This document shows positions 1-29,047 of a stretch of 31,754 nucleotides of DNA, piece after piece. Location: positions 1 through 31,754 of the forward strand of contig JBDRWW010000013.1 in NCBI GenBank assembly GCA_039802605.1. The letters run 5' to 3'. Numbering within the stretch: position 1 is the first letter of the stretch; each line of letters opens with the position of its first letter. Position numbers and translations under genes: made by a program. Source of the stretch: a candidate division WOR-3 bacterium. GTDB taxonomy: Bacteria; Hydrothermota; Hydrothermia; LBFQ01. The notes under the pieces are model-generated. The model had not been told where the DNA came from, did not search any database, and saw only the letters and a program-made list of their open reading frames with translations.

Positions 1-125
1 GTATTTGCCCTACATTCTGTGTGAAGAGCATACTTATACCTTCCTCGTATATCTCCCCAGCCCTTTTGTCGGGCTTTGGGGTTATGCCTTCCAGCGGCAA
101 TGAGGTTATTAATGATTATTGCCAT
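1..125 (-). CDS. 5' end of a probable gene running off the left edge (possible frameshift near nt 110)
   Basis: TAAAAT box (140-135) lies 9 nt before ATG at 125, as for other genes here. The ATG frame reads MAIIINNL...; the adjacent frame reads LITSLPLEGITPKPDKRAGEIYEEGISMLFTQNVGQI with more host-like codons. Confidence 0.35.
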   Translation of the reverse strand, partial: MAIIINNLIAAGRHNPKARQKGWGDIRGRYKYALHTECRAN

Positions 126-15898: not shown

Positions 15899-17019
15899 CC
15901 AAGGGGATTCCTCGGTGATAGTTGGGTGGGAATTACTATATCCGCAATGGATTCCATATCCCTATGCGTTATAGATACATCCTTATGAACCCATATTAAG
16001 GGTAGGGGATAACCTTCCGGCGAAAGCCGGGCTATATATCCCAAAAATTTCCCAATATTTTCGGGTTCAACATTCAATATCTCAACCTTATATGTTGAGG
16101 TGGAAAATGGGGATAACCTAACAAAGGTTTGGTATATGTATATGTCAAGTATTTTAACAAATTCCACCGGCAATTCCATCTTCTTCTCCTCTAAGGATGC
16201 CTCTATTGGTTCCGCATACCCATTTTTACCCAAAGTGCAAATGTTAAACATAACCTGATCCGTGATAAACCCCTTTATATTCCATTTTTTAACATAATCG
16301 GACAGGAAAGAGTCCTTTGTTATAAAGAATATCGGGTTTTGCAATGATACCAAAAACTCTATTGCGGAAAGGTATTCGTAATACAAGAGTAGGGCGTTTG
16401 CATACACATATATTGGTAATCCTTCATTCCTAAACCCCTCTGCAAACTTTACAAAAGCAAAATCTTCATCCCAGAACGTACCCTTTATATCCTCAATTAA
16501 ACCCTTTAACTCCCCCTCTAAGCCTTTAACATCATCGTATTTAACATCCAAATGTTTAATCCAATCGTATGTTGGTTGAGGGCTTATAACATCGCTTATA
16601 AAGGAGCCATCCATTAGAACCATATATTCACCTTTGTCGTCCAAGTCTTTGAGGATTTTTAAAAGGTTTTTTATTTCCGCCAACCTCATCCACATTGATA
16701 GAAATTCCGCTAGATTCTTGTTTCTCAGGATATTCTTTTCCATTTTACCCACAAAGGATATTCCCTCATCATTAAAACCATCACCGATTTTAACATATGC
16801 CAGACCTGTAATCGCAAATATCATATCAACATTCCTTATGGTATAGTTATACGAACCATCAACCGCTATTATGGGTCTTTCCGGAATATCATCGGGGAAT
16901 GGATGCCATTTCTCATCGTCAAGGGCCGGTAATTCCTCGTAATCCCTCTCTCCACCGAGATTATAAATCCCCCACTTGCCAATATTCGCCAAAAATCCGT
17001 AAATTGACCTCTCGTGCAT
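15895..17019 (-). CDS. nurA: NurA-domain nuclease (RNase H-like fold)
   Basis: IAVDGS, MRLAE, VLMDGS, ITKDS and C-terminal GYPLPL..VHKDV.IT motifs typical of NurA. Confidence 0.8.
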   Translation of the reverse strand: MHERSIYGFLANIGKWGIYNLGGERDYEELPALDDEKWHPFPDDIPERPIIAVDGSYNYTIRNVDMIFAITGLAYVKIGDGFNDEGISFVGKMEKNILRNKNLAEFLSMWMRLAEIKNLLKILKDLDDKGEYMVLMDGSFISDVISPQPTYDWIKHLDVKYDDVKGLEGELKGLIEDIKGTFWDEDFAFVKFAEGFRNEGLPIYVYANALLLYYEYLSAIEFLVSLQNPIFFITKDSFLSDYVKKWNIKGFITDQVMFNICTLGKNGYAEPIEASLEEKKMELPVEFVKILDIYIYQTFVRLSPFSTSTYKVEILNVEPENIGKFLGYIARLSPEGYPLPLIWVHKDVSITHRDMESIADIVIPTQLSPRNPLG

Positions 17020-17744
17020 TATTGTATTCTAATGGGCATTGGAAAGGCTGTACCCTTAATAAGCAGCATGGTTGAAGGTGTTAAGGCCTTTTCTATTTTT
17101 ATATATTTTAAGACATTTATCATTAATAGGGCAGTACCCGTATCGCTTACAACGGATGAAGGTATGTAATGGGATGTGGCATTTGGGGGTAGGTTCTTTA
17201 TATAAGGGTTTTGGTCGTTTAGTTTGAAGAAAACCTGTATAGAATCCGCACCGCTTACCGCATTCCAAGAAACAAATATTGAATCCCCAACGGAATGGAA
17301 TATAGTATCAACGGATATGCTGTCGGGTGGATTTACACTTGGTAATGTGAATTGTATGTCTTCCCCATACTTTGCGGTATGTATCCTTATGTTTGTTCCG
17401 CCGGAAAGGTTTATGTTTTGGGGTATGCCGTTTGAGTCGGCTAACATAAACAGCCCCTTATCCGAATAATATTTTAATAGGGTGCTCCCCACCTGCACAT
17501 GTGCCGATGGGTCTTCCTGGCCATCCACGAGAACCTTAAATATTGCCGTTTCGTATTTAATTGTATCCAAAAAGGCCGGGAATGAAGGGGGTGTTATATT
17601 TGAAGGTAGTATGGAATAGAAACTCCTCAGAGCCGGACCGGTTGCCCCACCAACACCGAATACGGATGTATGGGATATGCTGACCTTCTCCTTACAGGAT
17701 GTTATGAATAAAAGACCAAAAATTATAAAGGATAACCTTTTCAT
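17019..17744 (-). CDS. Hypothetical lipoprotein with an FN3/Ig-like C-terminal region
   Basis: MKRLSFIIFGLLFITS-C lipobox; VSWNAVSGADS FN3-like motif; TAATG overlap with nurA. Confidence 0.75.
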   Translation of the reverse strand: MKRLSFIIFGLLFITSCKEKVSISHTSVFGVGGATGPALRSFYSILPSNITPPSFPAFLDTIKYETAIFKVLVDGQEDPSAHVQVGSTLLKYYSDKGLFMLADSNGIPQNINLSGGTNIRIHTAKYGEDIQFTLPSVNPPDSISVDTIFHSVGDSIFVSWNAVSGADSIQVFFKLNDQNPYIKNLPPNATSHYIPSSVVSDTGTALLMINVLKYIKIEKALTPSTMLLIKGTAFPMPIRIQ

Positions 17745-19969: not shown

Positions 19970-21028
19970 CTACCATGGATTAAAATCTTCTTTGCCCTTC
20001 CCGGAAATCTTCCTTGCAAATGCGGATATGAGTTTTACAGCACCTTCAACATCCCTTATATCAACCATTTCGGAAGGGGAATGCAAATACCTGCAAGGTA
20101 TGGAAATTAAAGCGGTGGGTATTCCTCCCCTTTCAAGTTGTATATAATTCGCATCCGTGGGCGTACCCCTAGGGGAGGCCTCTATTTGTATTTCTATACC
20201 CTCTTCCTTTGCCGTTTCAACCAAAAGGTTAAATACTACGGGGTTTATGTTCGGACCTTTTGACAGAACCGGCCCTTTGCCCAGTCTTATATCCCCTATC
20301 ATCCTCTTATCAACCGATGGGTAATCAGTTGCAAGGGTTACATCAACCGCAATGGCCACATCCGGATTAACGGCGTATGCGCTCGTCTTGGCACCCCTTA
20401 AACCTATCTCTTCTTGAACGGTTGCAACGGAAACCATACGGGTATCCCCAGGATTTTGGCTGTAAAACCTCAAAGCCTCCAATACGGTGAAAGCGCCTAT
20501 GCGGTCGTCCAAAGCCCTTGAAACCAATTTGTGATCGTTTAGGAATTCCCCATCCCAATCCAAAACACCGTAATCACCAACGGATATAACCTTTTCCAAT
20601 TCTTCCCTTTCGAGTCCGAAATCCACCCAAAGTTCCTCCATCTTAACCGCCTTATCCCTCTCCTCAGGCTTCAATATGTGTATGGGTTTTCTGCCTATAA
20701 CCCCCTTTATAACCTTTCCATCCTTATTAACAAATCTAACCCTTTGACCCACCAAAACCTGAGGATCCCATCCCCCAACACCGCTTATATAAACAAAGCC
20801 GTTATCGTCTATGTATTGTACCATCAAACCTATTTCGTCTATATGCCCTGCCAACATAAGGGTTGGCTTCCCCTCACCGAATTCGGCGTATGTATTCCCG
20901 TGATTGTCCGTATATACCTTTTTTGCGAATTTCTTGGCCTCTTCCTGCCAAACCCTTGATGCCCTACCTTCATCACCCGATGGGCCTACCTGTGATAAGA
21001 GCTTTAAAAGGAATTCTTTGTTAAGCAT
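19970..21028 (-). CDS. M42 family metallo-aminopeptidase
   Basis: GPSGDE, HIDEIG, ALDDRIG, QEEIGLRGA, VDVT, RYLHSPSE. Confidence 0.95.
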   Translation of the reverse strand: MLNKEFLLKLLSQVGPSGDEGRASRVWQEEAKKFAKKVYTDNHGNTYAEFGEGKPTLMLAGHIDEIGLMVQYIDDNGFVYISGVGGWDPQVLVGQRVRFVNKDGKVIKGVIGRKPIHILKPEERDKAVKMEELWVDFGLEREELEKVISVGDYGVLDWDGEFLNDHKLVSRALDDRIGAFTVLEALRFYSQNPGDTRMVSVATVQEEIGLRGAKTSAYAVNPDVAIAVDVTLATDYPSVDKRMIGDIRLGKGPVLSKGPNINPVVFNLLVETAKEEGIEIQIEASPRGTPTDANYIQLERGGIPTALISIPCRYLHSPSEMVDIRDVEGAVKLISAFARKISGKGKEDFNPW

Positions 21029-21051
21029 AGCGGGTATTGTAAGGGGGAAAG

Positions 21052-22848
21052 TTATCTTAAAATAACCCTCTTTGTCTTTTTGCCCTCTTTTATAAAATAA
21101 ACCCCCCTGCCCTTTATATTAACACGCCTACCCAAAATATCGTAAATTATCCTTTTATCCCCCTTTAATTCGGCGCCCTTATCCCCAACTTTCAGTTCCG
21201 CTTCCGAGATTTCAAAACCAATCTTTATGCTGTCAAGCCTAAACCTCCTCGTACCGGTAAAATTCGTGAAGGCAACAATTAATACCTGTGCGCTGTCTAT
21301 GTCGTAAAGTGATGTATCGTAAAATGGGATATTTGGGATAACCTCAACGAAATCCCCCCAACCACCCTTATAACCCCTTATATAAACCTTTAACGAGCAA
21401 CAATCGGAAAAATTCCCGAAAACCTTAACAACCCTAGCATTGGCATAATTGGTACCTAAGCCCTTTGAGGGTAGGAGGAAGTAAAAGGCATTACTCCTAT
21501 CATAAACATTGCCGAATATCTGAACGGATAGGTTTCTACTCGCCTTTACCGAGTAAAGGTTTGTTTTAAGGGTTGTATCAAAATAAAAAGGGGGTCCCAA
21601 ATTCCAATAAACGCTTGAACTGTCCAACTCCTTCCTTGAAGATAGTATATCAGGCCACCCATCCCCATCAAAATCCATTACAAATACCCCGTAATTGCTG
21701 CTTGAAGGTATCACAAGCTTTCTACTTTCGGAAAAATTACCGTTATAGTTAAAGTATATCGTTATCCTGCCGTTGTTCCAATCGGATAAAGGTGCCTTTT
21801 CCCCAAATATAACATCAACCCATCCATCCCTATTTATGTCATAAGCCTGAACATTCCTACAATCTTGCAAGGATAAAAACTCGTGTTTGTTGTAAGGTGA
21901 ATATCCTACACCGCTTCCCCACATAACCACGCCATACCCGTATGCGCAGGATATTATGTCAAGGTACCCGTCCCGGTTTAAATCCGCAACCGTTGCGCCA
22001 TAACTACCAGACGAATCAAGTCCGGTTGGTTTAAACCATATATCGGTATATACACTTTGGTAAAAGTTTCCGAAAACATTCCAATATACCTTTGGGGGGT
22101 TTGTGGGTGGGAACCAATCCCTATAATAAAGACTACCAATATACGCATCAAGGAAGCCATCGTAATCCAAATCCGCAAAGAATACGGGATGTGTTCCCGC
22201 ACCGTACAAACAGGGTGTTGTATCCCATTGGTTATAACCGGAAGGCGAACCGAAAAATATCTTTGAACACTCCCTACCCTGAGGGGTTAACTGCGATGAA
22301 TCCCTCCATACACCTACGAGTATATCGGGATAGCCGTCCATATTTACATCCGCGACATATGGGGTTTCAACGGATCCAGCCTTCAAATAAACCATTCTAC
22401 TCGTATCAAAGGGATAATCGTAATAAACCCTTATCCCGGTTTTGCTTCTCGGATCCATAACGCTTAAAACATAGTCAATAATACCGTTTCCGTTCAAATC
22501 CCCAACCCAAACAGCATCGTGGCACATGCTATCGCCATCCGCACGATACTTCCAATATACCGGTGAAAACCTCCTGCCACCCGAGTTTATAAAAACATGC
22601 TGATATGGATAAGCATACCACCACTCGTTGTTCGTAAGTATTATATCCATAAGGCCGTCACCGTTTAAATCCAAGTCTTGACCCAAAATCCTTATGCCGT
22701 TTGACCAATACATATGCAAACCCAAATTCCAAGTCCTAACCTTATTATCCGACCAAAATAGCGTATCGCTACCGTAATAGTAATACTCCCTACCTCTTAA
22801 AAAATCCACCCCTTTATGCGCAATAGTATAGCAGAAAATAAGCTGCAT
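21052..22848 (-). CDS. FG-GAP/VCBS-repeat beta-propeller protein with a short T9SS-type-A-like C-terminal tail
   Basis: Seven DxN/DxDGxxD motifs (DLNGDGLMD, DLNGNGIID, DVNMDGYPD, DLDYDGFLD, DLNRDGYLD, DINRDGWVD, DFDGDGWPD); C-terminus IYDILGRRV...GVYFIK...KRVILR. Confidence 0.85.
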   Translation of the reverse strand: MQLIFCYTIAHKGVDFLRGREYYYYGSDTLFWSDNKVRTWNLGLHMYWSNGIRILGQDLDLNGDGLMDIILTNNEWWYAYPYQHVFINSGGRRFSPVYWKYRADGDSMCHDAVWVGDLNGNGIIDYVLSVMDPRSKTGIRVYYDYPFDTSRMVYLKAGSVETPYVADVNMDGYPDILVGVWRDSSQLTPQGRECSKIFFGSPSGYNQWDTTPCLYGAGTHPVFFADLDYDGFLDAYIGSLYYRDWFPPTNPPKVYWNVFGNFYQSVYTDIWFKPTGLDSSGSYGATVADLNRDGYLDIISCAYGYGVVMWGSGVGYSPYNKHEFLSLQDCRNVQAYDINRDGWVDVIFGEKAPLSDWNNGRITIYFNYNGNFSESRKLVIPSSSNYGVFVMDFDGDGWPDILSSRKELDSSSVYWNLGPPFYFDTTLKTNLYSVKASRNLSVQIFGNVYDRSNAFYFLLPSKGLGTNYANARVVKVFGNFSDCCSLKVYIRGYKGGWGDFVEVIPNIPFYDTSLYDIDSAQVLIVAFTNFTGTRRFRLDSIKIGFEISEAELKVGDKGAELKGDKRIIYDILGRRVNIKGRGVYFIKEGKKTKRVILR

Positions 22849-22916
22849 AAGTGGAAATTATATAGATGCCTCTGGTTTTCCCACACGAAAACTTTTTCTA
22901 TCGTATAATAACCGCT

Positions 22917-24413
22917 ATGCGTAAATTTGTGGTAATACTCCTGCCTACGGTGGTATTCGCCCAAGAGAGCGAGGAGATATACCGCGAGGAGCAACCGACA
23001 CGGGTACAGGTTAGTTCCGAAGTGTTCGGCGCCACCACCCTAATAGGCACCCCTATAAACGATTTGAGCGGACTTTCAGCCCAAGCAACGGGGGATCTTT
23101 TGAACATTTTAAGGGCCCGGGCGGGTGTATACGTAAGTTTTGCAAACAAATTCACCCTTGCCATAGCGGGCATATATGTCGGGGAAGCGGCGAGTGAAGT
23201 TTCAAGGCTTCCAATTGGTTTATCGGAAGCATATGTTCAGCTGGATACATTCGTATTGCCAATAGGGGGATTGGGGGAACTCAGAATGGGAAGGCAAATT
23301 ATTAACTACGGTATGGGCTTGGCATTTGGGGATTATCACGGTTTTGGTACCAATGCAATAAGGTTTGCATACAGGTTTAGCCCGGCATGGGATTGGTATT
23401 TGCATATATTGTACGCGAAATCAAACGAAGGTGGTGCAAGGCAGGTTGAGTACTTCTGGTATCCCTTTGCGTATTATAATGAATTAACAAATGAACAGGC
23501 CTTTAAATGGATATATACAAAGTACGACCTTGAAACATGGGCTTTGATATTGGGTAAATCAAGGGGTGATAGGGGTATTTATGATTTCTTCGTTTATGGC
23601 GCCGCAATGACGGAGGACAGGGGTTTGGGCGGAGGTTTTAACCCCTATTGGGTGGGAGGCTACATAAATATCGGACCCATTGGGAATTTCTTTATGGACG
23701 GTGAATTGGGTTATATGACGGGAACATGGGGTTCAAAACAAGAGGTATGTTATGACTTTTGCGACCAGATTTATAACATAACCGGTGGGGAAAGACAACA
23801 AATAAACGCGTACGCGATAGCAATAAGGGCATCTTATGACTTTACGGATCAGATAACGGGCGGACTGTCCTTCTTCACATTCAGCGGCGATAACCCGAAC
23901 ACCAGGGGTATGTACGAATCTTGGCTGTCCCCTCTTCCAAAATCCGGTATAAGCGCTTACAGTCCTTGGACACACTGGACGGGTATGGGTGAGGTGTTTA
24001 TTTGGAATTACAGGCCCGACAATTGGAGGAGCATATACTTCTTCAATCCGACGAATTTCGTCGTGGCAAACCTGAATTTCATATACAAGGCCTTCCCAAT
24101 ACAGCAATCGTTGGTTATAAGGGCGGATGGGTTTGCGTTTGCCGAAGCGGCATCACCAAGTGGGGTTGATTCCTACCTAGGTAGTGAGTTTGACTTGGCC
24201 TTAAAGTTTTCATACGCGGATATAGCGGATGTGGGTATAACTTTCGGGTATTTTGTGCCGAGCACGAGGTTTCAAAATACCGGTTGGTCAAGACCTTCTA
24301 GGTTGGACCTTGTTCAGGAGGGTTTGGTACCGGCGGACTACCAAGTCTTGAAAATTACCGGAAATTCCTATGTGGTCAGGCTTTGGATATACAGGTCCAT
24401 AAACTTCTTCTGA
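22917..24413 (+). CDS. Outer-membrane beta-barrel protein (alginate export/AlgE-like)
   Basis: Signal MRKFVVILLPTVVFA-Q; EAYVQL, GRQ.I.YG.G, SGDNP, LGSEFDL; aromatic amphipathic strands; C-terminal Phe. Start 7 nt after TATAAT. Confidence 0.75.
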   Translation: MRKFVVILLPTVVFAQESEEIYREEQPTRVQVSSEVFGATTLIGTPINDLSGLSAQATGDLLNILRARAGVYVSFANKFTLAIAGIYVGEAASEVSRLPIGLSEAYVQLDTFVLPIGGLGELRMGRQIINYGMGLAFGDYHGFGTNAIRFAYRFSPAWDWYLHILYAKSNEGGARQVEYFWYPFAYYNELTNEQAFKWIYTKYDLETWALILGKSRGDRGIYDFFVYGAAMTEDRGLGGGFNPYWVGGYINIGPIGNFFMDGELGYMTGTWGSKQEVCYDFCDQIYNITGGERQQINAYAIAIRASYDFTDQITGGLSFFTFSGDNPNTRGMYESWLSPLPKSGISAYSPWTHWTGMGEVFIWNYRPDNWRSIYFFNPTNFVVANLNFIYKAFPIQQSLVIRADGFAFAEAASPSGVDSYLGSEFDLALKFSYADIADVGITFGYFVPSTRFQNTGWSRPSRLDLVQEGLVPADYQVLKITGNSYVVRLWIYRSINFF

Positions 24414-24417
24414 TAAG

Positions 24418-25050
24418 TTGCCCTTCGTAGGAACTTTAACAAATGCTTTAAGTGTGGCGATTGGGAGTTTATTGGGCGGTATTTTGGGAAGCTTTATAAG
24501 TGAAGGGGTGAAGGAGGGCATTCTGAAAATCCTCGGTATTATAACCTTGGCCATATCCTTTAAAATGGTAATTGAGGGGGATATCGTTAAGGGGGCGGCT
24601 ACGGTTCTTTTGGGATACATCATTGGGAAATCTTTAAGGTTATCGGATTTCTTTGAAAGGTTTGAGAACATGGGAGGGGTTATTGCCGCATCCGTTTTGT
24701 TTTGCACGGGTCCTATGACGGTTTTGGGTTCAATAAAGGATGCTTTTGGCGATCCGGAAATATTGATTATAAAAGCACTGTTGGACGGATTCGCCTCTAT
24801 CACATTTGCAAGTATATACGGTTATAAAATAATCCTATCTTCCTTGGTGGTTCTAACGGTTCAAGGTGGTATAGGGTTGGCCTCTCTGTTTATAGGAGGT
24901 GGTAATCCCGATCTTTCCGTTTTAAACTCCGCGGGGGGTATGATACTTATGGCAATAGGGTTTAACCTTATGAGGTTTTGGAAGTTTGAAATCGCGAACC
25001 TTTTAATGGCATTTCCCATTATCCCGCTATGGTATTTCTTGCGATTTTAA
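24418..25050 (+). CDS. DUF554 (YqgA-like) membrane protein
   Basis: GTLTN...GSLLG, ASVLFCTGPMTVLGSI, KALLDGFASI, QG, ANLL; TTG start. Confidence 0.9.
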   Translation: MPFVGTLTNALSVAIGSLLGGILGSFISEGVKEGILKILGIITLAISFKMVIEGDIVKGAATVLLGYIIGKSLRLSDFFERFENMGGVIAASVLFCTGPMTVLGSIKDAFGDPEILIIKALLDGFASITFASIYGYKIILSSLVVLTVQGGIGLASLFIGGGNPDLSVLNSAGGMILMAIGFNLMRFWKFEIANLLMAFPIIPLWYFLRF

Positions 25051-25850
25051 GCCAAAAGGTAATATCAAGGCCTGATATTGAATACGGCTTTTATTGGAAT
25101 TACAAAATTGGCCATTACTTTTCTATACTCTCCAATCGGAATGATAAGTTGGAAGAAAAGGTTTTCTTAGGGTTTGAAAAGCCAATTATATCCTTCATCT
25201 TCGTAGGCGATACTCTCGGAATAACAACGGAAAACCGTTGTGGGTTTTATCTGATAACATACAAGTCCGAAAAACCGATAAAGTTAGGTGAATTTGAGGG
25301 TTGCAACCGTTTTACATTTTTTGCATACGATACGGGTGGGATATATGTGGCGATACCTAAGGGGAAAAAATTAAACATTTATAATTTTAAGGATAATAAA
25401 CTTAAATTTGTTAAAACAAAAACTTTTAACTTTAACGCCAAGATTTGCGATGTAATAAATGGCGAATTCGTATGCGTCCCATACAAGGGGGAAATATACG
25501 AGGGCGGTTTTTTAGACGATTCAACCTATTACGTCATTGAGGGGAAGACGGTTAAGGTTTTCAGAAATAAGGAATTGCTTATTGAAAAAAGTATGGATAA
25601 AAAGCCTTTATCGGTTTCGGCATCCCATGGGTTTTTATACATATCAACGGTTGAAGGTATATATTGCATAGATTTAAATACAAAGGCGGAAGGTTTTGTT
25701 GAGTTTCCTTCATTAAAGGTTTATGCCGCAAAATACTCCTTTGTGGTTTTGGTGGAAGATTTGGATGGTTGTATAAACATTTTTAAGCCCGTTTTTAGAC
25801 CCCCGTCCTTAAAGTTTTTATCAAAGGCAAATACGCGGTTCTGCAAATAG
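25029..25850 (+). CDS. Hypothetical beta-rich (propeller-like) protein
   Basis: 273-aa ORF with host-like codon usage and repeated short beta strands (FLYISTVEGIYCIDL); overlaps the end of DUF554. Confidence 0.65.
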   Translation: MVFLAILSQKVISRPDIEYGFYWNYKIGHYFSILSNRNDKLEEKVFLGFEKPIISFIFVGDTLGITTENRCGFYLITYKSEKPIKLGEFEGCNRFTFFAYDTGGIYVAIPKGKKLNIYNFKDNKLKFVKTKTFNFNAKICDVINGEFVCVPYKGEIYEGGFLDDSTYYVIEGKTVKVFRNKELLIEKSMDKKPLSVSASHGFLYISTVEGIYCIDLNTKAEGFVEFPSLKVYAAKYSFVVLVEDLDGCINIFKPVFRPPSLKFLSKANTRFCK

Positions 25851-25856
25851 GTTTGA

Positions 25857-26414
25857 TTAGCCCCTTCTTAAAGCAACAAGCGTCATAAGAGCGGACATAA
25901 CGATAAGGGTTGTATATCCGTAGTTTTGATTAAAAGAAAGTAGCAGATCTCCAAAAAATGTAAGCGTTATAATGATGGAACCGGGAATCCACCTCTTACC
26001 CACCTCACTGCCCCAAAACGCAAGCAAGTTAAAGTACACACCTAATGCCGAAATTAAATCTGCTATAATAACAATCGCAAAAGAACCAAAACCGCCTATA
26101 TAAAACCAAATTGCAACCACAGGAACTAACACGATAAGGCTTAATGCAAACCATGCTATCCATTTTATTCCAAAATCCCTTAATGAGGGTCTTATAAAAG
26201 GGATGGCGTACTGTAATACCCCGATTGCCACAATTAGGCGGGAAATTAATAATAGCCAATCCTTTTGGAAAATCCCATACAATCCCTGAAAGATAAAAAT
26301 AACAAATATGGATAAGTAAAGCCTACCCCTGATACTTTGATAACCCAATTCCCGAACCTTTAAAAGCTGTGCAAGGGCTGTTAAGAATGATATCAAAATG
26401 AATGCCGTTTTCAT
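25857..26414 (-). CDS. Hypothetical integral membrane protein (about 7 TM)
   Basis: Almost entirely hydrophobic. Start moved to MKTAF (26414), 8 nt after TACAAT. Confidence 0.7.
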   Translation of the reverse strand: MKTAFILISFLTALAQLLKVRELGYQSIRGRLYLSIFVIFIFQGLYGIFQKDWLLLISRLIVAIGVLQYAIPFIRPSLRDFGIKWIAWFALSLIVLVPVVAIWFYIGGFGSFAIVIIADLISALGVYFNLLAFWGSEVGKRWIPGSIIITLTFFGDLLLSFNQNYGYTTLIVMSALMTLVALRRG

Positions 26415-26450
26415 AAACGACAATTGTATACGGGCGAAAAAGCACATACA

Positions 26451-28412
26451 TCATTCAAATACTATTTCAACCCTTCTATTCTTAGCCCTACCCTCCTCCG
26501 TATCGTTTGGAGCTATGGGTTTCTTTGAACCGTAGCCAATAACATTTATCCTTTTTGGGTCTATACCGTTCCTTATCAGATAGTCCGCAACGGCCTTTGC
26601 CCTCCTTTCCGAAAGTTTTTGGTTATACTCTTCCGTACCAACAATATCCGTATGACCCGCAACGGTTATCCTTATATTGGCATGTTCCTTTAAAAACTTT
26701 ACAAGCCTGTTCAGTTCAAGTTTTGATTCCGGTTTTAATTCCGCCGAATTAAAGTCAAAGAATATGTTGTTTAAAACAAACTTCGCCCCCTTTTCAATTG
26801 GTTGTAGGGGTATTTCCAAGTATTTCTCCTGATAGTTTCTTAAACCCTTTAAATCAAAGTTAAAGGATTGGAAGGCGTGCAATGTATCCAAGGGTTCTGC
26901 GGTTAGTCCGTAAAACCTTTCGGATGGCAGAACCACGACGAATTGCCCGTTTTCATCGGTTTCGGATGAGAACCAAATTTTACCCGTTCCCAAATCTTCA
27001 ATTGTTATTTTGGCTTTTAGGGTTTGTTTGGTTTTCGCATCAAAAACCTTGCCCCTAACGAGGTTCACGGGTTCTGGCATTAATTCCTTCTGTTTATCGG
27101 TTAAACTATCCCTATTGGGTATACTCGCCCTGTAAATATGGTATATCTTTACCCCCGTTTTTTCATCAACGGAATCGATTCGTGAAAAATATATCCAATC
27201 AGCACTTGCGGGTATTGAAAAGAATATATCGTCTTCGTGTGTGTTGTAAGGATAACCGAGGTTTTCGGCTTTCGTCCATCGGTTTTCACCGACCATTTTA
27301 CTAACAAAAATATCATACCCTCCGAAACTCGCCCAACCGTTTGATGCAAAGTAAAGGGTTTTCCCGTCGGAATGTATGAACGGTGAAATTTCATTACCGG
27401 GTGTATTAACATTAGGGCCCAAGTTTACCGGCTCGCTCCAACTCCCATCCTCGTTTCTAATACACATCCAAATGTCTAAACCCCCATAACCCCCCGGTCT
27501 GCTTGAAGAAAAGAATAGATATTTCCCATCTGGGGACATTGTGGCTTGGGCATCCCAGTGCCTGCTGTTTGGTGGACTACCGGCGTTTTTAGGTTCTCCC
27601 CAAGATTCCCAACCGTTCCTCCTCTCGGAAAAGAAAATATCCATACTCCCATGACCGTCCCTTATACCCCCCTCCTTCTCCTTGGGTAAAGGTTTGTACT
27701 TTGAGTTATAGGCCAATATTAGGGTTTTATTATCAGCCGATATTCCGCTAACACCTTCGGAAGATGGGGTGTTTAAACCTTTTAAATTTATAGGCTCAGA
27801 CCATTTATCGCCCGTTTTTGTGGTTATCCATATATCCTCCCTACCCTCTCCCCCCTTTCTGGTTGATACGAAAACCATTACCCTACCATCGGCACTTATT
27901 ACGGGTGAATAATCCCCACCCGTTCCATCACTTAGAAGATAATACGACTTTATGGGTTTAACGAGTTCCTTTATCTGCTCAACCTTAACATTTTTAAACC
28001 TTCGCGCGTATATATCCCGTAATACTTGGAAATCCTCAATCTTTTTATAAACATCGGATTTTAGGGGGAAATGTTCGGGGTATTTGTATCCCCCTTCGGA
28101 GAGGTAGGTTTTTAAAAGGCTTATGGCCATATCAAATTCGTAAGCCCTGCCATAGGATAACGCGGCGTTTAATAGGGCTTTTAGCCTAAGGGTGTCGCCA
28201 TAGGCCGCCTTTTTGGAAGCTTTATAGAAGTAAATTGCCGCCGAGTCATACTTTGCCGTGCTGTAATAAACCCATCCCAGTTGGTAATTGTCTTCATAGG
28301 TATCGTTTGTATATTTGCTTTTGAGTTCGGAGAACCTCCTGCTTTTGAAATAGGCGGAATATTTATCGTTTAATGGCGGGAAAAGGTCAATGTATGCGAA
28401 GATTATTACCAT
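26451..28412 (-). CDS. TPR-PD40-carboxypeptidase-regulatory-OmpA domain protein (PorE-like architecture)
   Basis: N-terminal TPR-like helices; PD40 repeats (SPVISADG, MSPDGKYLFFSSSRPGGYGGLDIW, SPFIHSDGKTLYFAS); VRGKVFDAKT; OmpA_C (GHTD...N.KLSERRA.AV...NRRVE). Confidence 0.9.
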   Translation of the reverse strand: MVIIFAYIDLFPPLNDKYSAYFKSRRFSELKSKYTNDTYEDNYQLGWVYYSTAKYDSAAIYFYKASKKAAYGDTLRLKALLNAALSYGRAYEFDMAISLLKTYLSEGGYKYPEHFPLKSDVYKKIEDFQVLRDIYARRFKNVKVEQIKELVKPIKSYYLLSDGTGGDYSPVISADGRVMVFVSTRKGGEGREDIWITTKTGDKWSEPINLKGLNTPSSEGVSGISADNKTLILAYNSKYKPLPKEKEGGIRDGHGSMDIFFSERRNGWESWGEPKNAGSPPNSRHWDAQATMSPDGKYLFFSSSRPGGYGGLDIWMCIRNEDGSWSEPVNLGPNVNTPGNEISPFIHSDGKTLYFASNGWASFGGYDIFVSKMVGENRWTKAENLGYPYNTHEDDIFFSIPASADWIYFSRIDSVDEKTGVKIYHIYRASIPNRDSLTDKQKELMPEPVNLVRGKVFDAKTKQTLKAKITIEDLGTGKIWFSSETDENGQFVVVLPSERFYGLTAEPLDTLHAFQSFNFDLKGLRNYQEKYLEIPLQPIEKGAKFVLNNIFFDFNSAELKPESKLELNRLVKFLKEHANIRITVAGHTDIVGTEEYNQKLSERRAKAVADYLIRNGIDPKRINVIGYGSKKPIAPNDTEEGRAKNRRVEIVFE

Positions 28413-29047
28413 TTTAAGGCTCTTAGAATGCTTAAAAATACACCAAGCCCGTCTTCGCTTCCCAAAATCTCATCGCTTGCCCTCTCCGGATGGGGCATAG
28501 TTCCGAAAATCCTGCCATCCTCGGATATTATAGCCGCTATATCATCCTCCGAACCGTTTGGATTTTCTTCATACCTGAACACCACCTTAAAATTTTTCCC
28601 TTTTCCCTTTATGTATCTTCCGTCGGAATGTGCTATTGGAATTTTAATCCTTTGGCCTTTTCTAAACATGTTTGTAAATGGTGTATCGTTATCCTCAACT
28701 ATGAGGGTTTGCCATTCGCATATAAACTTCCCGTTTGTGTTTTTGGTTAGGGCTCCGGGTAAAAGTTTGCTTTCCGTTAAAATTTGAAAGCCGTTGCATA
28801 TTCCGAGTATATAGCCTTTAAAATCCCATAAAGCCTTAACAACGGGGGAAAAGGATGCCAAGGCCCCCGGTCTTAAATAATCCCCATAAGAGAAACCACC
28901 GGGTAATACTATGAGTTGGTAGTCTTTTATATCGGTTTCCTTATACCAAATATATTTGGCATCAAAACCCGCCTTTTCAAGCGCCCAATATGTATCCCTA
29001 TCGCAATTACTACCCGGGAATACTACAACGCCCGCCTTGGGTTTCAT
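28406..29047 (-). CDS. purQ: Phosphoribosylformylglycinamidine synthase subunit PurQ
   Basis: FPGSNCDRD, PGGFSYGDYLR.G, GICNGFQIL, NPNGS, MPHPER. Confidence 0.97.
   Translation of the reverse strand: MKPKAGVVVFPGSNCDRDTYWALEKAGFDAKYIWYKETDIKDYQLIVLPGGFSYGDYLRPGALASFSPVVKALWDFKGYILGICNGFQILTESKLLPGALTKNTNGKFICEWQTLIVEDNDTPFTNMFRKGQRIKIPIAHSDGRYIKGKGKNFKVVFRYEENPNGSEDDIAAIISEDGRIFGTMPHPERASDEILGSEDGLGVFLSILRALKW

Follow-up and report, generated by a model that had tools for sequence, protein, structure and literature searches.

The stretch of DNA considered here, referred to below as the window, is 31,754 nucleotides (nt) long and represents the entire contig C13 (JBDRWW010000013.1) of a metagenome-assembled genome from a candidate division WOR-3 bacterium (GCA_039802605.1; 1.65 Mb in 23 contigs, 41% G+C, no N). 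It carries three genes whose products, an FG-GAP repeat protein, an OmpA-domain protein and a 273-amino-acid (aa) protein, begin with a methionine and a few hydrophobic residues in the position of a signal peptide. These ultra-short N-termini, and their distribution in the genome (G000) and in the phylum, are the subject of the present work. Relatives are designated by other G numbers, and families and genera within the phylum by the letters f and g respectively. Kin genomes are not independent samples, and counts across genomes are given to describe the pattern and not as a statistical test. The features of the window are collected in Table 1.

Table 1. Features of the window discussed in the text (T9SS, type IX secretion system; CTD, C-terminal domain; h-region, hydrophobic region of a signal)
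Position	Strand	Feature	Basis and remarks
1..125	-	edge gene fragment, MAIIINNLIAAGRH...	41 codons on contig
17019..17744	-	lipoprotein-type protein, MKRLSFIIFGLLFITSC	in-window example; MKR, h-region and lipobox retained
21052..22848	-	FG-GAP repeat beta-propeller protein, 598 aa	Pfam FG-GAP_3 4.4e-30; T9SS-CTD-like C-terminus
22857..22862	-	TATAAT (-10-like) box	sequence; 8 nt before FG-GAP ATG
22904..22909	+	TATAAT box	sequence; 7 nt before the ATG at 22917 (divergent gene)
22917..24413	+	498-aa protein, conventional but short signal MRKFVVILLPTVVFA/QE, C-terminus ...INFF	no Pfam or NCBIfam match
25029..25850	+	273-aa protein, starts MVFLAILS/QK, ultra-short type with Ser/Ala-Gln ending	no family match (Pfam, NCBIfam)
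26451..28412	-	PorE/CHU_0125-like periplasmic protein	Pfam OmpA 6.8e-29, PD40 7.3e-25; N-terminal part without family match
28406..29047	-	upstream gene, 213 aa	stop overlaps OmpA-protein ATG (ATGGTAA)

Start sites of the window genes

The FG-GAP protein begins MQLIFCY (N-terminus MQLIFCYTIAHKG). Its frame comprises 601 codons from stop to stop, and only Phe-Pro-Leu (FPL) separates the in-frame TAA, three codons upstream, from the ATG. A previous inspection of the window without database searches (the sequence-only reading) had taken this start to be fixed by a nearby -10 box, in agreement with the TATAAT and the upstream stop described here. Judged from its sequence, the position of the box implies that the mRNA is leaderless or nearly so. 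The divergent gene at 22917 has an adjacent TATAAT of its own and the two starts therefore lie just 68 bp apart. A short hydrophobic start is kept in seven FG-GAP orthologues despite sequence divergence; N-termini read in orthologues include MFLFAYTVVH, MVILISITFIV, MKILLLLMVSD, MMSALVLFILAD, MPLPVIGLLLASSS, MIWPQIFYIVFD and MVILISITFIVD.

The OmpA-domain protein begins MVIIFAYID (N-terminus MVIIFAYIDLFPPL). Nineteen open codons lie 5' of its ATG and none of them is ATG, GTG or TTG. There is also no room for a longer signal because the ATG overlaps the stop codon of the upstream gene, which looks purQ-like from a reading of its sequence alone. The gene was found in G000 and in all 11 family-level relatives, in frames of 656-706 codons (the G008 copy is split over two contigs), and the short hydrophobic start is kept in 12 of the 12 loci. 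In genus g1 it reads MVIIFAYID, MVILLSYLD or MVILLTYLQ. Genus g2 copies have a TAAAAT box and, 6 nt further on, a TTG start that is conserved in six of the seven (ATG in the other); the product begins M-IVLVAALGKLE, ahead of a conserved MFPPL. Pfam reports PD40 and OmpA domains in the window protein and does not report a TPR family. The NCBIfam scores (CHU_0125_OmpA, 255.5 bits with a cut-off of 620; T9SS_PorE, 242.3 bits with a cut-off of 600) suggest a similar architecture to PorE/CHU_0125 without curated membership.

The start of the 25029 protein (MVFLAILSQK) lies 13 codons past a stop. Neither Lys nor Arg occurs within the first nine residues of the FG-GAP, OmpA-domain and 25029 proteins, and none of the three carries a lipobox. 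The sequence-only reading had reported all three starts, the absence of an upstream start for the OmpA-domain protein and the absence of a basic N-terminal region (n-region), and each of these observations holds. The edge gene (125 to 1, minus strand) does start MAII as it had stated, although this is a fragment.

A further claim, that the FG-GAP protein carries a T9SS CTD, is not confirmed by the curated model: TIGR04183, applied to the last 99 residues, gave E = 0.1 and 12.6 bits (cut-off 23), and the protein is not among the 46 TIGR04183 or 19 PF18962 matches in the genome. FG-GAP orthologues have a usual tail pattern (...Y-x-x-x-G-R/K-R/K ... G-x-Y ...) and the tail of the window copy is shortened; in alignment A1 (columns 601-681) it is shorter than in family-level orthologues. 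An AlphaFold2 model of the FG-GAP protein based on a seven-sequence alignment has a mean pLDDT of 60, with residues 1-58 under 50. In the genus-level relatives G002, G004 and G001 the orthologue (loci L015, L017, L018 and L025) is split between contigs, has an in-frame TGA or is present as two open reading frames (ORFs).

The divergent 22917 gene provides an in-window contrast to the ultra-short type, with 15 residues preceding Gln. Its orthologues start MRRITLLFIPYIALAQE, and the gene adjoins the FG-GAP gene in relatives also. The sequence suggests that the product is probably an uncatalogued outer-membrane beta-barrel.

Three raw-read RNA runs from hot springs gave no reads on window positions 20900-28900. 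One RNA-library run gave seven contig pieces identical to the window, which carry neither start nor strand information. An RNA-library contig (run X1), identical to the window, covers 28273-28495, the junction of the purQ-like and PorE-like genes; it fits co-transcription of the two, with DNA carry-over being possible.

Ultra-short starts in the genome and the phylum

ORFs were defined by a crude caller as beginning at the first ATG, GTG or TTG after a stop and comprising at least 90 codons, with overlaps removed greedily. In G000 this gave 1588 ORFs, 1577 without those at contig edges, and 1087 of these are ATG-first. Class U was defined by a mean Kyte-Doolittle hydropathy of at least 1.5 over residues 2-8 and the absence of D, E, K and R from residues 2-7. 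For the final set we also required that there be no later membrane helix and that the first charged residue occur by position 20. Class U includes 144 ATG-first ORFs, and 109 of the 1087 after the helix and charge filter. The definition is conservative: it leaves out the FG-GAP protein, whose Gln at position 2 puts it under the threshold.

In the 109 N-termini, I, L, M or V stands at position 2, Leu or Trp at position 3 and L, I or V at positions 4-6. Trp at position 3 (M-I/L/M/V-W-I/L/V...) occurs in 23 of the 109, against 4 of 176 starts of MKR type and a background of 1.3%. The median hydrophobic run spans 7 residues up to residue 8, ends at residues 6-10 being the most frequent; this length is at or under the lower bound of the roughly 7-15 residues of a usual h-region. 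The residue after the run is S, G or T in 41 cases. Gln occupies position 8 in 15 proteins (background 1.8%), and A, S, G or C followed by Q is found within residues 5-16 in 21/109, compared to 6/109 in a control interval. Residues 2-7 contain no D, E, K or R, as the class definition demands, and the charged n-region of a tripartite signal is thus absent; with no Arg in this interval there is no twin-arginine (Tat) motif. Type IV pilin signals, which have a short basic leader, a G/F cut site, Glu5 and a hydrophobic helix of about 20 residues, do not fit either, as the run of 6-10 residues is followed by globular domains.

Upstream of the class U starts, at most 5 codons separate the in-frame stop from the ATG in 59/109 and at most 12 in 87/109, and none of the intervening codons is ATG, GTG or TTG. 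All three stop codons are represented (TAA 55, TGA 31, TAG 23). Since the gaps are short and all three stops are used, neither longer N-termini nor an altered genetic code can explain the class. A TATAAT-like box is located 4-11 nt upstream in 58 of the 109 class U genes and in 257 of 772 other genes (odds ratio 2.3, Fisher p = 7e-5). Among 1092 ATG-first ORFs, 394 have such a box 4-11 nt (mostly 8-9 nt) before the ATG and 235 have Shine-Dalgarno-like motifs. This distribution suggests that leaderless mRNAs are widespread in G000. The leaderless state is tied to the short start but is not required for it, since 51 of the 109 lack the box.

Known domains begin directly behind the peptide: Pfam DUF4159 at residue 9, PCuAC at 10, AhpC-TSA at 10 and OEP at 13. 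In alignments to solved structures, query residue 12 corresponds to residue 6 of the soluble ResA domain and query residue 14 to residue 7 of Thermus PCuAC. This places the peptide where a signal peptide would lie, outside the ResA- and PCuAC-type folds.

The carriers are largely envelope proteins. A random 60 of the 109 were searched against Pfam and the families were sorted by our own judgement. At least 19 belong to families acting only outside the cytoplasm: BamA (Omp85 and POTRA), OEP (TolC-type, two), Plug (TonB receptors, two), FadL, di-haem cytochrome c, PCuAC, LolA-like, Amidase_2, Amidase_3, SLT, a ResA/TlpA-like redoxin, PD40, SLBB, YceI, a C25 (PorU-like) peptidase and two weak Por_Secre_tail matches. 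Repeats, peptidases or DUFs account for 22 of the 60 (including S8, M14 and M28; LVIVD, FG-GAP and BNR), and Pfam assigned no family to a further 15. The remaining four (PurF, starting MCGIVG, IspDF, DUF503 and BFN) are false positives that are clearly or probably cytoplasmic. The 46 TIGR04183 (T9SS tail) matches of G000 comprise 25 proteins with a short start without K/R, four with a longer start without K/R, six with a conventional signal, nine unclear cases (several of them contig-edge fragments) and two without an ORF in the caller output.

These carriers bear on the view that the hydrophobic starts merely arise because leaderless mRNAs are constrained in sequence at the 5' end (first codons rich in U/A), export being ensured by a C-terminal T9SS domain or by internal signals. 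The enrichment of the -10-like box in front of short starts (58/109 against 257/772) accords with such a view. We nevertheless consider it improbable: 51 of the 109 genes have no box, the PorE-like gene being translationally coupled instead, and most box-bearing genes have no hydrophobic start. The families concerned are nearly all of the envelope, and some of them (BamA, TolC, cytochrome c) lack any C-terminal signal for export. Moreover, T9SS cargo still crosses the inner membrane via Sec, which we also count against this explanation.

Other signal types are present in the same genome. Starts with MKR or MRK and an h-region belong mostly to lipoproteins with a lipobox. These signals, too, are shorter than usual: of the 38 caught by our rule (many more are visible by eye), 22 have the lipobox Cys at position 13-15. 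Together with the 15 residues of the 22917 signal they bear out the remark of the sequence-only reading that even the conventional signals are short here. About 25 conventional type-I signals were counted by eye, mostly ending ...FA/Q, ...YA/Q or ...YA/D. Compared with 109 ultra-short starts, this means that about four in five non-lipoprotein exported proteins appear to use the ultra-short type. From this sequence survey, the ultra-short start appears to be the main signal of the non-lipoprotein periplasmic, outer-membrane and T9SS proteins of G000.

The phenomenon is spread over part of the phylum (Table 2).

Table 2. Class U starts in members of the phylum and in a control, expressed as class U/ATG-first ORFs; the same caller and thresholds were used everywhere (SRP, signal recognition particle)
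Genome	Extent	Relation	SRP	Class U	Type of start
G000	whole genome	own, f1	not found	109/1087	ultra-short
G027	391 kb	same class, f5	not found	30/210	ultra-short
G078	392 kb	same phylum, f27	present	27/233	short
G093	170 kb	same phylum, f24	not found	9/93	longer runs; conventional signals too
G058	400 kb	same phylum, f13	present	12/216	several runs of 11-14 residues, others cytoplasmic-looking
G048	400 kb	same class, f4	not found	11/250	many more signals of ~10-14 residues with one K/R
G066	400 kb	same phylum, f16	present	3/260	all cytoplasmic-looking
Escherichia coli K-12	200 kb	control	present	3/110	none exported

A comparable gradation is seen in the BamA presequences of 30 genomes. In f1 and f5 they consist of M and 6-7 hydrophobic residues followed by Gln. 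They are without K/R and of about 11-14 residues in f10, f13, f27 and f31, and of 16-17 in f8; they carry one K within about 11-13 residues in f3 and f4, and are conventional, with about 19-28 residues, in f12, f15, f20 and f25. Despite sequence divergence, the bamA genes of f1, f5, f10 and f27 have all retained a short hydrophobic start. Thus the start sequence drifts, and its hydrophobicity and shortness stay, a mode of change which reads as that of a signal peptide and not of a frameshift.

This conservation also bears on the trivial explanation that the short starts are artefacts due to wrong start calls, assembly frameshifts, a non-standard code or decaying pseudogenes with eroded signals. 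Both the metagenomic origin of G000, with its 23 contigs, and the FG-GAP orthologues which are split or have in-frame stops in the fragmented G001, G002 and G004 assemblies could be taken in its favour. Yet independent assemblies, at 28-95% identity, show these same starts again, and orthologues in up to 11 relatives keep equally short starts, which argues against errors of assembly or start calling. About 100 unrelated genes, including the essential bamA, have the feature. A non-standard code was rejected since the three kinds of stop are found upstream and SecY aligns over almost its entire length under the standard code. We regard an artefact as very improbable. The possibility, raised by the sequence-only reading, that the true starts lie upstream is likewise not borne out, given the short stop-to-ATG gaps and the conserved short starts of orthologues.

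Export machinery and signal recognition particle

SecY, SecA, YidC, LspA and LepB are each present once in G000. SecY (C2:107320-108651) is 43% identical to that of E. coli; both have 443 aa and they align over nearly their full length under the standard code. In 28 SecY sequences from across the phylum (two of 30 loci gave no clean ORF) we compared 14 pore-ring, plug or prl positions (E. coli numbering). They are conventional in 28/28 except for a change from Ile to Ala at the equivalent of E. coli Ile187, presumably a pore-ring position. Ala is found only in f1 and f3, with Ile in all 24 other SecY sequences of the phylum, including those of the short-signal families f5 and f27; the change therefore does not track the short signals. 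An adaptation of SecY was rejected on these grounds, as the sites are otherwise wild-type-like. LepB, the single signal peptidase I (SPase I), has one N-terminal helix with SSSM directly after it and was judged ordinary. Hence, while the suggestion of minimal signals in this lineage is supported by conserved starts and by their genome-wide use in envelope proteins, the accompanying suggestion of an adapted Sec/SPase system is not, SecY and LepB being ordinary. The C-terminus of YidC lacks the long basic tail seen in Oxa1/YidC2. SecA (C3:24679-27615) ends ...KAKSRRRGVILED, and no Cys-rich zinc-binding tail of the kind found in E. coli SecA is visible in its last 120 residues.

The sequence-only reading had also proposed to look for changes in Ffh, the protein component of SRP. 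Ffh appears to be missing and not altered, together with SRP RNA (31 genomes) and FtsY (G000). None of 31 genomes (G000 and 30 relatives up to class level) gave a match to the Ffh M-domain (PF02978), and 14 of 14 control genomes did; several of the 31 are 99-100% complete in 3-40 contigs. TIGR00959 (ffh) gave nothing over 21 bits in these genomes. PF00448 and TIGR00064 (ftsY) gave nothing above their cut-offs in G000, and the Ffh search of the 30 relatives would also pick up the GTPase domain of FtsY. SRP RNA (RF00169) was found in 0/31, with 12/14 controls positive. A tblastn search of G000 with five Ffh sequences from other WOR-3 genomes gave no match (best E = 0.025); the same queries match Ffh in the G058 sample at about 1e-116 to 1e-125.

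Over 81 genomes of the phylum, Ffh was above cut-off in 46 and SRP RNA was found in 49, with agreement family by family. Both are present in f12-f16, f18-f20, f22 and f27-f31, and neither was found in f1, f3, f4, f5, f8, f10, f11, f23, f24, f26 and f32. Families f17, f21 and f25 have no SRP RNA and only weak matches (79-101 bits) to an SRP-type GTPase domain; in one f16 genome Ffh is present and the RNA was not detected. From these searches SRP appears to be missing from the class containing G000 and from further families of the phylum. Its loss is separable from the short signals, since G078, which has SRP, is rich in short starts and G093, without SRP, has mostly longer ones. SRP loss as the simple cause of the short signals was consequently rejected: G078 has both Ffh and SRP RNA with 27/233 class U starts, and G093 shows the opposite combination.

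Proposed minimal export signals and their relation to known systems

The short hydrophobic N-termini are real translation starts. Taken together, these data make it likely, in our opinion, that they act as a lineage-specific minimal export signal for SecA/SecYEG. Such a signal would consist of formyl-methionine and about 6-10 strongly hydrophobic residues (I/L/V/F, often with W at position 3), that is, of an h-region only. It would have no basic n-region and almost no C-terminal (c-) region, and would usually end with a small residue followed by Gln, Asp or Glu. The single SPase I would cleave at least the Ala/Ser-Gln subset behind residue 7-9 and expose Gln as the new N-terminus, because the Ala/Ser-Gln ending is common to the conventional signals of G000 and resembles the Q-rule (see below). 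The other short signals would be cut at a less canonical site or remain uncut. Many class U peptides may belong to this second group because no small residue closes their run. Lipoproteins, whose lipobox Cys must be presented at the outer face of the membrane, keep MKR and an h-region; their longer signals are in keeping with a model in which ultra-short peptides would not form the classical membrane-spanning hairpin.

Several points weigh against this interpretation. We infer export itself, the Sec route and cleavage from sequence, and both the gene caller and the class definition are crude. The summed Kyte-Doolittle hydropathy of class U is about 20, compared with 36-42 for conventional signals (G000, relatives and E. 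coli), and the run is about half as long; a hydrophobic run with a median of 7 residues should not span the pair of membrane leaflets. A small residue closes the run in only 21 of the 109, and many have no obvious -1/-3 site. Neither SecY nor LepB shows, as far as their sequences indicate, an adaptation that would explain the acceptance of short signals. Finally, plant-type glutaminyl cyclase (Glu_cyclase_2, PF05096) was not found in G000, the animal type (M28) not having been searched for.

A very hydrophobic core is said to offset a missing N-terminal positive charge, as reportedly observed by Chou & Kendall (1990) and Hikita & Mizushima (1992). Such compensation alone would be insufficient here because the total hydropathy is about half the normal value and the value per residue is not higher. 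A trade-off of hydrophobicity for length was rejected, since the mean hydropathy per residue of class U (2.74) is hardly above that of conventional signals of relatives (2.4-2.8).

These properties leave some room for peptides which target export without being classical cleaved Sec signals. They might be too short to stay in the membrane, and open SecY and slip out uncleaved, or they might feed a new targeting factor or translocase which perhaps recognises an M-hydrophobic-W motif. Trp at position 3 in 23/109, against 1.3%, suggests sequence-specific recognition and not plain hydrophobicity. The low total hydropathy, the many peptides without a small residue at the end of the run and the longer signals retained by lipoproteins, which need to span the membrane for processing, point the same way, as does the absence of SRP from the whole class, which implies that targeting is somehow rewired. 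We nonetheless consider this alternative unlikely: no candidate factor or translocase was identified, the Ala/Ser-Gln signature common with conventional signals indicates the same SPase I, and the short type also occurs in G078, which has SRP.

A wider picture is possible, although we advance it only tentatively. A large WOR-3 clade may have rebuilt its targeting, with signals of 7-10 residues without an n-region on most of its non-lipoprotein envelope proteins (possibly recognised through M-hydrophobic-W, and cut after residue 7-9 or left uncut) and, separately, with a class and families that are devoid of SRP. If the peptides do drive export, they set a new lower limit for recognition by SecA/SecYEG and perhaps by SPase I, and a basic n-region would be dispensable proteome-wide. 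In these hot-spring and hydrothermal lineages, most exported proteins are probably overlooked by signal predictors and in surveys of secretomes, CAZymes and peptidases. With SRP apparently lost, the class would be a natural experiment in SRP-independent membrane protein biogenesis. Were both short signals and SRP loss to hold, two supposedly universal rules of membrane and secretory biogenesis would be broken and secretomes badly under-called. To our knowledge, signals of 7-10 residues without an n-region are shorter than any class described. Our literature searches yielded no description of ultra-short signals or of natural SRP loss in the WOR-3 phylum, and a search within two recent WOR-3 papers (PMC12542636 and PMC12285271) did not find the terms "signal peptide" and "secretion". 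The latter describes a cultured WOR-3 strain, which would make both short signals and SRP loss testable at the bench.

Some known systems approach the arrangement proposed here. E. coli prlA (SecY) suppressors export proteins with defective or missing signals, and SecYEG can thus in principle accept poor signals. In the WOR-3 lineage, unlike prlA strains, the prl, pore and plug sites compared are wild-type-like, save for Ile187Ala in f1 and f3. The lipoprotein (Sec/SPII) signals of G000 very likely use the same translocon as the ultra-short type and are also shorter than usual, but retain an MKR n-region, an h-region of about 8-12 residues and a lipobox.

According to the abstract of Bochtler et al. 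(2018; PMC5837995), the Q-rule is confined to Bacteroidetes and does not extend to the whole Fibrobacteres-Chlorobi-Bacteroidetes (FCB) group or related phyla; the WOR-3 lineage is not discussed there. As under this rule, Gln follows the likely cut in many conventional and ultra-short signals of G000, and T9SS-type cargo is present in both cases. The share of Gln is much lower in G000 (15/109 at position 8), in which, in addition, Glu_cyclase_2 was not found.

Another comparison is with Sec/SPI signals themselves, whose textbook form has an h-region of about 10-15 residues in a presequence of about 18-30. Class U differs in having no basic n-region, a run of only about 6-10 residues in a presequence of about 7-12, frequent Trp at position 3 and almost no c-region. 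Like Sec/SPI signals, the ultra-short peptides are N-terminal and hydrophobic, stand directly before the mature domain, vary among orthologues and, in a subset, end with a small residue.

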